From a virus (lineage: Duplodnaviria; Caudoviricetes): a stretch of 31,258 bases of DNA. The stretch is from IMG/VR virus record IMGVR_UViG_3300031452_000016, positions 1 to 31,258 of that record. One strand, written 5' to 3'. Each line of letters begins with the position of its first letter. Position 1 is the stretch's first letter. Below are positions 19,460-26,340 of the stretch, one piece after another. The position numbers and the translations under genes were made by a program. The notes under the pieces are model-generated. The model saw nothing but the letters and a program-made list of their open reading frames with translations. It ran no database searches and was not told the origin of the DNA.

Positions 19460-20629
19460 TCAGATGCCCTTGTAGTTGAACACCTGACGCAATGTGTGCA
19501 GCGGCCGGACGAGATCGACCTGATCGGCCATGACCTGCTGAATGTCCTTGTAGGAGGACGGGTGCTCGTCAAGTAGCTGCTCTGCCTTGCCGGACAACCA
19601 CTCACGATCACCCATCGCCTCGCGGAAGGACTCGACGGTCAGTTCCTGGCGTGCGCGCTTGCGGGACATGCGCCGGCCAGCACCGTGTGAGCAGGAGTTG
19701 TACGAGGCTGGGTTGCCGAGTCCTTCCACGATGTAGGAGCAGGTGCCCATCGACCCAGGGATGACGCCCAAGTCACCGACGCTGGCCTTGATGGCGCCTT
19801 TGCGGGTGATCCACATGTCGCGGTTGTGGTGGTGTTCCATCTGCGCGAAGTTGTGGTGGCAGTTGATCGTTCGCTTGACGACGCCGCGCCCTGCGACCTC
19901 AAACAGCGACCGCTCGGCGGCGTTCATCATCGCCTGGCGGGAGCCGAAAGCGTAGCGCTGCGCCCACAGCATGTCCGCGATGTAGTGCTCAAACTCCGGT
20001 GTGCCTTGCGCGAGGTAGGCGAGGTTTGGGTCGGGCAGGTCGATGAACCATCGCCGCATTAGGCCCTTGGCTTCCGTGACGGCCCGCTGAGCGAGCTGGT
20101 TGCCGATGCCACGGGACCCGGAGTGCAGGACAAGCCAAACGCGGTCGCTTTCGTCCAGACAGACCTCTACGAAGTGGTTGCCGGAGCCGAGGGTGCCGAA
20201 CTGAGCGGTGGTGGTCGCTTCCTGCTTCGCGGTGAGTTCGGTCGCTGGCATCCCTACCTGCTCGAACGCCGTGTACTCGTCGGGCTGTGACGGACCGGCG
20301 AACTGCTTCCCGACTCCGGCCGGGATGCGCTGCTCGATGAGCGGCATCAGGGAGTGCAGGCTGTCCGGTAGGTCGCTGGCGGTGAGGTCGGTTTCGGTTG
20401 CGATCATGCCGCAGCCGATATCCACCCCGATGGCGTAGGGGATGATCGCGCCGAGCGTCGGAATGACTGTCCCGATGGGCGGACCGAACCCGCTGTGCGC
20501 GTCTGGCATGAGCGCGACGTGTGACGGCACGCACGCAAGGGATGCCGCGATGGCCGCATCGTCAAGTGTCTTGTCCTCGACATTGCTGCCCCAAGAAAGC
20601 ACCTTTGGGCGGGGGGTCGTGATGGTCAT
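19460..20629 (-). CDS. rtcB: RtcB-family RNA 2',3'-cyclic-phosphate/5'-OH ligase
   Basis: MPDAH, GVDIGCG, GTLGSGNHF, HSGSRG, HHN, RKGA, PGSMG, SCSHGAGR and DEHPSSYK motifs all present; GGAGGA ribosome-binding site. Confidence 0.97.
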   Translation of the reverse strand: MTITTPRPKVLSWGSNVEDKTLDDAAIAASLACVPSHVALMPDAHSGFGPPIGTVIPTLGAIIPYAIGVDIGCGMIATETDLTASDLPDSLHSLMPLIEQRIPAGVGKQFAGPSQPDEYTAFEQVGMPATELTAKQEATTTAQFGTLGSGNHFVEVCLDESDRVWLVLHSGSRGIGNQLAQRAVTEAKGLMRRWFIDLPDPNLAYLAQGTPEFEHYIADMLWAQRYAFGSRQAMMNAAERSLFEVAGRGVVKRTINCHHNFAQMEHHHNRDMWITRKGAIKASVGDLGVIPGSMGTCSYIVEGLGNPASYNSCSHGAGRRMSRKRARQELTVESFREAMGDREWLSGKAEQLLDEHPSSYKDIQQVMADQVDLVRPLHTLRQVFNYKGI

Positions 20630-21918: not shown

Positions 21919-22208
21919 GCCGCTCCTGTCTGTGCGCCGTTCTGCGGGCCGTTCAGGTGCTGGGCCTTACCCGAGTGTGGGGCTGGCGCCGTCGTTGCGG
22001 GTGGGGGCCGGTCGGGCCAAGCAGCCCGGAGTGCCTCGGTGCGGGTGCGGCCCTCGGCGAGCAGTTGCATGCTGAAGCCGTAGGCGCCCCAGCACGAGTA
22101 CCAGGCGATGACGCAGCCCAGCGGTCCACCGGTCGCCCTGTCGTGCACGAGGTACGCCTTGTCGTCGTAGCAGCGCAGGACTAGCCCGGACGGCGGCTGG
22201 CGGGTCAT
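21915..22208 (-). CDS. Hypothetical protein
   Basis: ATGA coupling at 22208. Confidence 0.55.
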
Positions 22209-22573
22209 GTGCAGACCGTCGTGGGGATGCCGTGATCCCGTGCTAGCCGAGCGGTGTGAGTGGCCCCTCGGCTGCCGTCTCGGATAAACGCGAGGCACAC
22301 GTCGGCCCCGAGGTTGACCATCTCGGTGTTGCGCCGGAAGCCCGCTGCCTTGCCGTGTTTCTCCCAGTCGGCGGGGTGCCGTTCGATGGTCCAGCTAAGC
22401 CAGATGGCATGCTCCTCGGCCATCCGGTCGGCGCCGGTCGGGCAGGCGCCGCTGACCAGGACACAGCGGCCGTGCGCGTCGTGAACTAGATCCAAGGCGC
22501 GGTGAATGACCAATCGGTTCTTCCAGTCGCGGGAGCCGGTGATGAGCACGCGGTAGAGCTTGATCTCGCTCAT
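22205..22573 (-). CDS. SLOG-superfamily protein (DUF2493/YspA-like)
   Basis: [40 protein letters not shown] and SRGATHT motifs. Confidence 0.88.
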
Positions 22574-22845
22574 GACGCTTCCTGTCCGCTGAGGGTGTCG
22601 GCTCGGCACGGTCCGCACGTCCTGGCCCACTGCCCGACGTGCTCGGGGCAGCGGTCGGGGTCGCGGTGGTTCGGGGAATCTGAGGAAGTCGAAGTGGAGC
22701 TGGCTGGGCTGGTGGCGGCGGGGAGCACGAGGGTGTGCCGGCAGTCGAGGCAACGAAGCCGCCGGACGTCGAGCAGGACGCAGCGGTGGCGGTCGTTGCC
22801 GGCGGGGTTGTCGAGGTGCCGGGTGAGCAGGTTATCGGCGGTCAT
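22570..22845 (-). CDS. Cys/His-rich protein resembling the C-terminal module of actinophage replication initiators
   Basis: ATG at 22845; CLDC and CPEH...CGPCRAD motifs. Confidence 0.55.
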
Positions 22846-23909: not shown

Positions 23910-24130
23910 GGCGTTCCTTTCCTCAGTGCCTGGCGGATCCGGCCGGTGAGCAGGACCCGGCTGTGCCCCACATGCCAGTGCTCCGGGCCCTGCACGGGGC
24001 ATCTGTAGACCGACAGATCGCGGTGGTGGGTGTCCCGCTGGAGGTCGGTCATCGCGGCCACGGCGAGGTTGCGGGTGGGGTAGCGGCGTTTCTCCAGCCG
24101 CAGACACGGACCGGACAGGGCGGTGGTCAC
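23906..24130 (-). CDS. Small Zn-binding hypothetical protein (YRCP...HWHVGH)
   Basis: GTGA coupling with the methyltransferase stop. Confidence 0.65.
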   Translation of the reverse strand: MTTALSGPCLRLEKRRYPTRNLAVAAMTDLQRDTHHRDLSVYRCPVQGPEHWHVGHSRVLLTGRIRQALRKGTP

Positions 24131-25227
24131 GCGTGCGTCCAAATCAGCAGGCAGCAACCGAACGGTGGGCGCTCGTTAGGTCCGACGTCGAGCTGCCCGG
24201 CCTTGATGAACCGCATGCGACCGGGAAGGAACTCGACTCGTAGGCCGGATCCGGCTCGGTCGCGGTGCGGCTCGACCTGCTGCTGCCACCACTTCTGCTC
24301 GCAGCGGTTCGCAGGCAGGAGCATGACGATGCCGAGGGCGCGGTCTGCCTCGAGCCATGCCTTGCGAACCCACGGCTCGATTGAGCTGTATGGCGGGTTG
24401 CAAAAAACGGTCTCAGGCCGCAGCGAACATGCGATGCATCTCATACAGGAACTGCTCGATGACCAGTCGTCGTTCGGCTGGGACCCACTCAACGGGGAGA
24501 CGCGCTCCCTCCCGTCTATTGCAGGACTGACAAGCTGGGACGATGTTCCAAGGAACTGTGCCGGGACAATCGGTGGCGGCGAAGGGAATGTAGTGATCTT
24601 GCTCAAGGGCTCCGTCTGCGCCGCAGTAAGAGCAGCAACACCTCCAGAAGTCGCAGGCGCGCTGCCATGCTTCGGCGGACCACTGGTAGGGAAGTGATTC
24701 GCGCCGCTGACGCCGCCAGTTGTTATCCACCCGGCTGGCATCCCGCTTCCACTGACGTCCCTGCGGCGAGACTCGATACCGCTCTTTTTCTGCGATAAGT
24801 TTTGAGCGAAGTTGAGGGTCAGCTCGTCTTGCAGCTTGCCGCTCTCGAGAACGTCGTCGGTCGCATTCTCGGCACTGACTGTATCGGCCGTTTCGCTTCG
24901 CAGTGCGGGGAACGAACGAGCATCGGTCACGCCAGACTCGGCAATTGGTACATCGGATGAGTGACACGAGCATCGGCAATCCACTCCGTAGGTATTGATC
25001 CATCTTGGCCCCCACGACTGTCTCAGCCCGTCCGTCGTCCGGTCGAAGTAGCGGTGACACTTCGTGTTGTGCGCGGCAGCTGCCACGTCCAGGGTGAACG
25101 GGCCGAGGCGCTCGGAGAACTGCTCGAAGTGGAGCGGGTGTGTTGCGCGGTCGTCCACATCGTCTAGCGGTCCTGCAGGAAGGGTCTGCTGCGGATGGTT
25201 CTGCGCCTTGAAGCCGAGCAAGCTCAT
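24127..25227 (-). CDS. dam: Phage DNA N6-adenine methyltransferase (Dam/PF05869-like) with a 197-codon in-frame insertion
   Basis: FTLDVAA..HNTKC..YF..DGLRQSW before the insert; VFCNPPYS, VMLLPANR, WWQ, GRMRF and PPFG after it; ATGA-coupled start at 25227. Confidence 0.9.
   Translation of the reverse strand: MSLLGFKAQNHPQQTLPAGPLDDVDDRATHPLHFEQFSERLGPFTLDVAAAAHNTKCHRYFDRTTDGLRQSWGPRWINTYGVDCRCSCHSSDVPIAESGVTDARSFPALRSETADTVSAENATDDVLESGKLQDELTLNFAQNLSQKKSGIESRRRDVSGSGMPAGWITTGGVSGANHFPTSGPPKHGSAPATSGGVAALTAAQTEPLSKITTFPSPPPIVPAQFLGTSSQLVSPAIDGRERVSPLSGSQPNDDWSSSSSCMRCIACSLRPETVFCNPPYSSIEPWVRKAWLEADRALGIVMLLPANRCEQKWWQQQVEPHRDRAGSGLRVEFLPGRMRFIKAGQLDVGPNERPPFGCCLLIWTHA
24413..25003 (-). CDS. 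HNH endonuclease nested out of frame within the methyltransferase gene
   Basis: N-terminal CTNC...CREC zinc ribbon, then CSYC...EQDHYIP...WNIVPACQSCN HNH motif; start at 25003 or 24973. Confidence 0.9.
   Translation of the reverse strand: MDQYLRSGLPMLVSLIRCTNCRVWRDRCSFVPRTAKRNGRYSQCRECDRRRSRERQAARRADPQLRSKLIAEKERYRVSPQGRQWKRDASRVDNNWRRQRRESLPYQWSAEAWQRACDFWRCCCSYCGADGALEQDHYIPFAATDCPGTVPWNIVPACQSCNRREGARLPVEWVPAERRLVIEQFLYEMHRMFAAA
24418..25008 (-). mobile_element. 591-bp homing-endonuclease-like insertion element
   Basis: Removing it restores QSWGPETVFCNPPY; GGCC occurs at both junctions; lower GC than the flanks. Confidence 0.75.
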
Positions 25228-25655
25228 GCGGCTCCTTCGGTGGGTTGTGTGGCGCGACGCCGGATCTGGCGGGCGGCCTGGTAGGCGATCTCGGCAGTGG
25301 CGCACGGCTCGCACGCGGTCTCGCGGTGGCTTCGGTGCCGGTTGAAGGCGGCGTGCGACCCGCACGGCGCCAGTCCGCGAGAAACGCGCAGCAACGGCTC
25401 GTACGGCACTGGGGCGCGAGGAACCAACAGAAGTGATCCGAGGGGTGTCAGCTGGTCTGTCCAGGCCGGCAGGTCACCAGCGGTGCAACTGTCATTGACC
25501 ATCCCAGCGAGCAGCACCACAGCGGCCGGCAAGTCCAGCAGGTCCACTGCGGTCTTGACCTCGTGGACATCGCCACTGCGGACCGCCCCGATGAGTTCCA
25601 GGATGGTGGGGAGCGCCATCTCGACCCGGCGGGCACCCTGACGTGAGGGGGTCAT
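25224..25655 (-). CDS. Hypothetical protein with C-terminal PCG..RH...C..C zinc motif
   Basis: PCGSHAAFNRHRSHRETACEPC; coupled at both ends. Confidence 0.7.
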   Translation of the reverse strand: MTPSRQGARRVEMALPTILELIGAVRSGDVHEVKTAVDLLDLPAAVVLLAGMVNDSCTAGDLPAWTDQLTPLGSLLLVPRAPVPYEPLLRVSRGLAPCGSHAAFNRHRSHRETACEPCATAEIAYQAARQIRRRATQPTEGAA

Positions 25656-26083
25656 GACGCGCGCCGCCGCTTCGCTTTCGCCTGTCGTGCTTGCCGGCTG
25701 GCTTCAACCATCGCAGCCCTACACAGCGGGCACGGCGTCTCGTGCTGGCTCCGGTGGCGCGTGTAGCCAGCAAAGGTGCCGCACGGCTGTAGCGGCCGAG
25801 GTGTGGGCCGTTCGGCGGCTACCCGAGGGGCACCTACCGGCGCCGGCTTGTCCCCGTCCCTGAACAGCCACCCGCCCCAAATCCCTAGCGGACGCTGGTG
25901 AATGCCAGGTCCGGGGTTGGCGTGCCACTGCTGGGCGTAGGTGAGGCACTCGGCTTGGACGGGGCAGCTGTGGCAGACCTGGGCGGCGGCCTGCTGGTCG
26001 TGGTGGTCCTCAGACAGCCACAGGTTCGCGGGCCGGCCGGCGCAGGCAGCCTGGTCCGCCCACGCACCGAGCGCGGCGGTCAT
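25652..26083 (-). CDS. whiB: WhiB-family transcriptional regulator with C-terminal zinc motif
   Basis: W..QAAC...VCHSCPVQAECL...GIWGG; WhiB is an actinobacterial marker. Confidence 0.9.
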   Translation of the reverse strand: MTAALGAWADQAACAGRPANLWLSEDHHDQQAAAQVCHSCPVQAECLTYAQQWHANPGPGIHQRPLGIWGGWLFRDGDKPAPVGAPRVAAERPTPRPLQPCGTFAGYTRHRSQHETPCPLCRAAMVEASRQARQAKAKRRRAS

Positions 26084-26340
26084 AGCCTGATGCTCGGATC
26101 CCACTCGACCCCGTATTGCCTCAGCTCCTGCTGGTCAACGCGTGCTTTGGTCTCAAGGGACGCCGGGGTGGCGATGTAGGAACACATCAGGCAGCCGTCC
26201 TGATCGTTCCGGTGGTCCTCCTTGATGGTGAACAACCGCGAGTTGTAGGTGGTGTGGTAGTAGCCGGCCGCGGCGATCCGGTCGTGCTCGGTCTGGTCCG
26301 GCTGGTTCAACCGGATCCACTCTGAACTCGAGTCGCTCAT
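26080..26340 (-). CDS. Hypothetical protein
   Basis: ATGA coupling at both ends. Confidence 0.6.
   Translation of the reverse strand: MSDSSSEWIRLNQPDQTEHDRIAAAGYYHTTYNSRLFTIKEDHRNDQDGCLMCSYIATPASLETKARVDQQELRQYGVEWDPSIRL

Follow-up and report, generated by a model that had tools for sequence, protein, structure and literature searches.

The closest described system to the locus reported here is the ShiLan domain, a hidden HNH endonuclease read out of frame in the mycobacteriophage methylase gp65, for which an unspliced loop, with no clasp, was proposed (PMC11855218). That paper leaves two questions open: what makes an unspliced passenger of 200 residues tolerable, and by what means the hidden nuclease comes to be expressed. 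The related literature on hidden HNH genes includes the insertion in Pacc40 gp60 (PMC9957025). Inteins with out-of-frame or antisense homing endonucleases have also been described (bioRxiv 10.1101/2025.01.02.630785). These inteins share with the present element an endonuclease in another frame and a host frame that is read through. However, inteins excise themselves, whereas the element here has neither a splicing domain nor junction residues.

Two further kinds of system are useful for comparison. In Aeh1 nrdA, the free-standing phage homing endonuclease mobE splits a gene, and the host protein is made as two polypeptides. The likeness to the present locus is that an HNH gene is lodged in a host gene without splicing; the difference is that here one continuous host frame is kept. 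Split zinc sites are the second kind, and they include the DnaJ-type CxxCxGxG ribbon, the CD4/CD8-Lck zinc clasp, and the Rad50 zinc hook. As in these, distant Cys pairs would be joined by one metal, but the site predicted here is intramolecular, encloses an overprinted selfish gene, and has the unusual spacing CxCxCH plus CxxCxxC. In the locus described below, a likely homing HNH gene is nested in a methylase gene whose own frame stays open, and the sequence comparisons indicate that the insert is probably read through as a loop of about 200 residues, likely closed by a zinc split ribbon.

The window, meaning the whole stretch of 31,258 nucleotides that was analysed (IMG/VR virus record IMGVR_UViG_3300031452_000016; Caudoviricetes), belongs to a GC-rich phage record and has a GC content of 68%. 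On its minus strand, at 24127..25227, lies a Dam-family DNA adenine methyltransferase gene (PF05869 Dam) of 366 codons, with no stop across the insert. The 366-aa methylase-frame product, P0001, matches PF05869 as two stretches (E 2e-18; 67.1 bits against a cut-off of 28.1), and its F-x-x-D-x-A and NPPY motifs are intact. The N-terminal half (25011..25227, minus) carries FTLDVAA at 25078-25098, which we take to be the likely SAM-binding motif I, and the C-terminal half (24127..24402, minus) carries NPPY at 24388-24399, the catalytic motif IV. The intact methylase gp58 of Gordonia phage Jambalaya matches both halves at 74% identity; relative to that protein, they are parted by about 197 extra residues. 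A full-length match to P0001 was found in 0 of 24 annotated-phage records.

The second ORF in this gene, at 24413..25003 on the minus strand, encodes an HNH endonuclease (196 aa from the first ATG; Pfam HNH E 1.7e-5). It lies on the same strand as the methylase but is shifted by one base, so that methylase codons begin at base 2 of the HNH codons. The product has an N-terminal CxxC..CxxC finger and an HNH core at 24518-24634, and the HNH and zinc-ligand residues of the nuclease are intact. Translation likely starts at the ATG at 24973, judging from the relatives P0122 and P0124, which begin near the same position, and a GGAG at 24984..24987 (minus), 10 nt before this ATG, is a candidate ribosome-binding site. 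No sigma-70-like promoter was found within the window's insert. Among the relatives, the 5' end of the L006 insert carries TTGACA-18-TATAAT (12/12) 7 nt before the HNH ATG, and L015 and L019 carry TTGCTT-17-TACAAT or TATAGT 6 nt before theirs; the position of these boxes suggests leaderless HNH transcripts. Between L015 and L019, dN/dS is 0.14 in the HNH frame and 0.13 in the methylase halves, which indicates purifying selection on both. The window's HNH protein is missing from a collection of 15 billion proteins, whereas the methylase-frame protein is present in it; nested HNH genes of this kind are missed by gene callers.

Empty alleles of the methylase gene make it possible to define the element. 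Four of the seven listed runs were compared, X5 and X6 among them. A contig in X5 is an empty allele of about 95% identical DNA (31 differences over 693 aligned bases). In it, 24402 and 25011 are separated by just 17 letters, different from those of the window, and the translation across the joint is SW-AGERVW-CNPPY. The element at 24403..25010 (minus) therefore replaces 17 nt by 608 nt, a net gain of 591 nt or 197 codons. Its 3' end restores the lost codons in recoded form, with PETVF in place of GERVW, and since the element carries its own copy of the target, the exact insertion point is ambiguous. Further loose ends of an empty allele occur at 24402 in X6. Of the listed changes between the window and the empty allele in the methylase halves, 15 of 18 are silent. 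A second pair is formed by P0134, which is invaded, and P0144, which is empty, at 85-86% identity. Invaded alleles are scattered among empty ones in a quick and weakly supported tree of the methylase C-half, built from 98 columns and 91 rows (11 long, 13 short-ribbon, 65 of the 210 empties, L001, and L024), with most forks open. When L015 is compared with L019, divergence is lower in the insert than in its flanks (dS 0.53 vs 1.79). Together, the empty alleles, the scatter, and the low insert dS are the marks expected of homing, from which cutting by the nuclease may be supposed.

The resemblance to the ShiLan domain is close in kind. In both, an HNH ORF of about 200 codons lies out of frame in a phage methylase whose own frame is free of stops, no intron or intein signature is seen, presence is patchy, and retention as a loop is proposed. 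A free-standing HNH gene beside an intact methylase is known for both as well, in Sashimi/Tiff81 for ShiLan and in L024 for the present family. L024 belongs to the same HNH clade and lies directly upstream of an intact Dam methylase, which is possibly a pre-insertion state. The start of the insert can mimic host sequence downstream of it in both families; here, the starts in P0005, P0129/P0134, P0140, and P0132/P0133 (ARERVWC, GGAWLN, GRVFMNP, and GRVLL) mimic the host motif 3' of the insert. However, this is not the ShiLan domain itself, as neither homology of nuclease and host nor a common insertion site was found. The host family is PF05869 in the window and PF01555 in ShiLan, with no BLASTP similarity, and the two HNH proteins have no detectable similarity (E 1.0). 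Unlike ShiLan, the present family uses two relative frames and has internal promoter-like boxes visible in relatives. The ShiLan insert (about 571-772) has Cys only at 578, 604, 670, and 680, and terminal clusters are absent. The hidden-HNH layout was already published (ShiLan, 2025), and the cysteine clasp, which has good comparative support at the sequence level, appears to be the new part. No published report of a clasp at hidden HNH insertions was found in the main texts of papers outside subscription, where only the ShiLan papers were relevant.

Whether the host frame is kept open can be judged from loci that were found by the HNH motif alone. This DNA scan, blind to both methylase context and cysteines, gave 23 loci: 11 sit inside a Dam methylase gene, all at one common site, and 12 are free-standing. 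The host frame is broken in 0 of the 11 nested loci. Host-frame stops number zero in all eight distinct nested loci, although 4-10 would be expected for the seven longer ones, and for the three full +2-frame loci the P of an open frame is below 0.001 under both models. In contrast, the free-standing HNH relatives have stops in both other frames (12/12). For the window alone, the P of the open frame depends on the model, at 0.001-0.16 in one analysis and 0.002 or 0.41 in another, so it is not exceptional under every model; across relatives, the open frame is highly significant. Four loci (the window, L015, L005, and L019) use the +1 frame and four (L003, L006, L009, and L022) the +2 frame, and in a quick tree both types fall, intermingled, within a single HNH clade (SH-aLRT 99). 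In the host frame, dN/dS between L015 and L019 is 0.91 in the middle of the insert and 0.10 in the last 20 codons, a 3' figure that covers those 20 codons only, while the first 26 codons, at 0.70, are not clearly constrained. Because the methylase frame stays open, the insert is likely translated straight through.

Members were collected by DNA pattern scans and by three protein searches of the word-based kind, and the list is not complete. A first HNH pattern run against viral sequences gave 0 matches, as did P0002 as a query, and two viral patterns combining HNH with NPPY gave 16 matches, in which the sole methylase, L120, is a repeat of L003. Among 80 more distant viral HNH loci, none is nested in a Dam methylase and two are nested elsewhere. 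One observation outside the family is L081 (634-1950), where an HNH gene lies out of frame in an intein-like segment of a 1095-aa open frame, terminase-like by eye; this is a case of the out-of-frame intein arrangement.

Translated in the methylase frame, the insert gives PRWINTYGVDCRCSCH, starting at 25008, and SCMRCIACSLR, ending at 24418. The initial annotation had pointed to Cys clusters at both ends with roughly 170 Cys-free residues between them, and this is what the sequence contains. The 5' half of the proposed clasp (24961..24978, minus) is C84-x-C86-x-C88-H89 and the 3' half (24427..24447, minus) is C261-xx-C264-xx-C267, with zero Cys among the 172 residues from C88 to C261. A further suggestion of the initial annotation, that constraint on the HNH frame is lowest at both ends, holds for the 5' cluster, which straddles the likely HNH start, and fails for the 3' cluster, which lies within the last HNH helix. 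When the HNH gene was recoded synonymously 20,000 times, 0.3-0.4% of the recodings showed the two-ended pattern; among 20,000 codon-order shuffles, 0 did.

Overlaps of the Cys codons with HNH coding are the basis of the main alternative, the one proposed for ShiLan, in which a read-through loop is tolerated with no metal clasp and the cysteines are by-products of HNH starts, promoter TG, and hydrophobic codons of the last helix. For example, the C86 codon overlaps the HNH ATG, and the 3' cluster is encoded across the L-Y, M-H, and M-F codons of the HNH gene, where M-H and M-F force Cys (joint P 0.34). With C86 tied to the HNH start and the 3' trio largely dictated by the HNH frame, selection in the host frame cannot be proved from the window gene by itself. 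A Cys codon of L006 likewise coincides with the TG of an extended -10 box (TG-T-TATAAT). The ShiLan insert, moreover, persists without terminal Cys clusters, which means that a clasp is not needed for the hidden-HNH lifestyle in general. Even so, comparison with related inserts makes this alternative an unlikely one.

Among those inserts, the terminal cysteines are conserved. Both CxCxCH and CxxCxxC are invariant in five of five close homologs, and four protein homologs with full-length inserts, at 40-47% identity, have both clusters unchanged. The clasp idea, put forward in the initial annotation, would have fallen if terminal cysteines were not conserved in homologous inserts; pairs occur at both ends in 11/11, and the idea is supported. 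Each of these long inserts has a Cys/His pair in the first 25 residues, a Cys pair in the last 25, and none in the middle, a pattern that was set after inspection of the data and scored on inserts that are related and hence not independent. Cys makes up 57 of 550 residues at the insert ends and 41 of 1888 in the middle (p 8e-15), and the shuffle P for paired ends ranges over 0.001-0.021 per insert. DNA is at hand for six of the 11; the other five (P0003-P0006 and P0140), whose HNH genes are presumed, are known as proteins and so could be found only if open. At least two conserved Cys/His ligands lie on each of two distant segments in all 11, as in a split ribbon. The spacings differ by lineage (CxCxCH/CxxCxxC; CxxH or CxCH/CxxC; CxxxC/CxC), and for this reason no single fold applies.

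Several of these results argue against cysteines as mere by-products. The Cys pairs recur in two relative frames, and because both frames occur in one HNH clade, no single HNH codon pattern explains them. Such pairs are also rare in free-standing relatives, where a 3'-end pair of this kind appears in 4 of 148 alternative frames. The 5' cluster of L003 and L022 precedes an HNH-frame stop and thus lies outside the HNH ORF; in L006, it precedes the first ATG. In all four +2 loci, the 3' CxxC needs T at two synonymous HNH positions (joint P 0.055-0.19 each).

Related evidence comes from inserts that have no HNH gene. Among 240 parsed methylases, none much shorter than 200 aa, an insert is absent from 210; a short CxxC..CxxC ribbon is present in 13, another kind of short insert in six, and a long insert in 11 rows. 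A further 12 proteins were unparsed. The short zinc-ribbon-like inserts occupy the same loop as the long ones, and in keeping the same kind of ends they again speak against a loop with no clasp. DnaJ-like inserts of 40-60 aa with CxxCxGxG..CxxCxG are seen in P0007, P0009, P0012, P0013, P0015, P0022, and P0026, and more of them, in the same loop, in P0028, P0033, P0053, P0066, P0073, and P0107. In P0067, P0070, P0096, P0113, and P0117, short Cys-rich inserts lie slightly earlier in the Dam methylase.

A parallel system exists in the N6_N4 methylases (PF01555), with a distant HNH. Three hidden-HNH inserts (L105/L123, L124, and L142) were found there, with the host frame open, as well as ten distinct loci without an insert and four unparsed. 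The hidden HNH sits after KPNPMPESV, with TACAAT 8 nt before the HNH ATG (3/3). Two short HNH-free inserts, L125 and L126, have the RH..CPGCxxC ends common to the three long ones, and none of the ligands of the long ones falls within the HNH ORF (3/3), which is a further point against cysteines that merely follow from HNH coding.

Structure prediction gives a picture of ordered ends and a disordered middle. In the AlphaFold2 model of P0001, pLDDT is 73-81 for residues 61-90, 64-88 for residues 261-300, and about 30 for residues 91-260; the methylase and the insert ends are ordered, with strands at 75-77 and 268-270. This model is of low confidence (mean pLDDT 48.7, pTM 0.42) and zinc-free, and it was read from its per-residue values. 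Across both halves (residues 29-366), the model aligns weakly with class I methyltransferases, among them ErmC' (Z 5.7, rmsd 4.3, 120 aligned), and Foldseek gave no PDB match at E <= 0.001 (best E 9.8e-3). A predicted complex of residues 68-98 and 246-276 with two zinc ions scored 0.15 against a mark of 0.32 and was counted neither way.

Under the zinc-clasp reading, which is the preferred one, a single mRNA most likely yields the methylase at full length; its passenger would be disordered, with zinc holding the two passenger ends together. The passenger is thereby proposed to become a closed loop that makes splicing unnecessary: the insert ends would zip around one or two zinc ions, bringing the methylase halves adjacent and letting them fold without RNA or protein splicing. 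The HNH protein would be made separately from an internal start, using GGAG and the ATG at 24973 here and promoter-like boxes 6-8 nt upstream in relatives. Its proposed targets are empty alleles, which it would cut close to the codons that precede NPPY; repair would then spread the gene, and the recoded target copy in the element would make the invaded allele immune. Selection purges stops from the host frame, which is presumably translated, while the middle of the passenger drifts. The sequences show the nesting, the open frame, the empty allele, and the conservation of the cysteines; from these we infer translation of the invaded methylase, metal binding, methylase activity, and HNH cutting.

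A broader proposal can be made, for which the chances are about even. Introns and inteins let homing endonucleases reside harmlessly in genes, and zinc clasps may be a third means to that end. A short split-ribbon module of Cys/His residues in a surface loop of the methylase would serve as the landing pad, with the nuclease, often with its own promoter, nested out of frame between its halves. This would have arisen independently in at least two methylase families, and the short clasp-only forms left behind would be akin to mini-inteins. The family offers testable answers to both of the questions left by the ShiLan work: the conserved clasp of Cys/His residues at the insert termini for the first, and for the second the ribosome-binding or promoter-like sites that lie shortly after the 5' end. 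Should this hold, selfish genes would have a way of living inside enzymes that requires no splicing, and a portable clasp for large passengers in protein loops would be of interest to protein engineers.

The cysteines could also be selected and join the ends by other means, for instance through disulfides, through a cluster or a metal other than zinc, or by self-cleavage with the help of a metal, in which the passenger is freed and two associated halves stay behind. The metal cannot be named from sequence alone, the window offers seven possible ligands, and the spacings vary between lineages, all of which leave room for such chemistry. Nevertheless, it is improbable: the CxxC/CxC pairs and the CxxCxGxG ribbons in the same loop are typical zinc motifs, disulfides are unlikely in the cytoplasm, and the insert has neither a conserved junction nucleophile nor a terminal Asn.

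Removal of the insert from the RNA, or skipping of it by the ribosome, is very improbable. An unrecognised intron, RtcB-assisted ligation, or a bypass of the gene 60 type would restore normal length once 197 codons go, and the phage does encode RtcB. However, there is no Rfam match of note, the folding z is 0.12, the HNH ORF occupies nearly the whole insert, no stop follows a take-off site, the junction codons are unmatched across relatives, and the purge of host-frame stops would stay unexplained. The specific candidates were rejected on similar grounds. P0001 has no Pfam intein match (L081 has one) and its junction residues vary, so it is not an intein. For a group I/II intron, the sole Rfam match was a chance miRNA (E 3.9) outside the gene, alongside the same folding z. 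Bypass in T4 gene 60 involves matched take-off and landing codons and a stop after take-off; here there is no in-frame stop, and the junction codons are neither matched nor conserved. The RtcB RNA ligase gene (E 2e-109) is at 19460-20629, upstream of the terminase by a few genes.

The weakest alternative, with the slimmest chance of all, is that the invaded methylase is dead and its frame is open by chance or only to avoid polarity on downstream genes; the gene's absence from a related phage and the P of up to 0.16-0.41 for the window's own frame under some models would fit this, but both conserved methylase motifs are kept in all 11 invaded proteins (as NSPY in one), dN/dS between two invaded alleles is 0.13, where part of the divergence may predate invasion, and, at 0.29 against a median of 0.33, the terminal branch of the window is not a long one. 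In the related phage, the flanks on the X6 contig are joined precisely and the whole methylase gene (window 24126-25224) is absent, which means that the gene is dispensable. Other genes in the neighbourhood are a WhiB gene at 25652-26104 and a YspA-type SLOG gene near 22205-22576.
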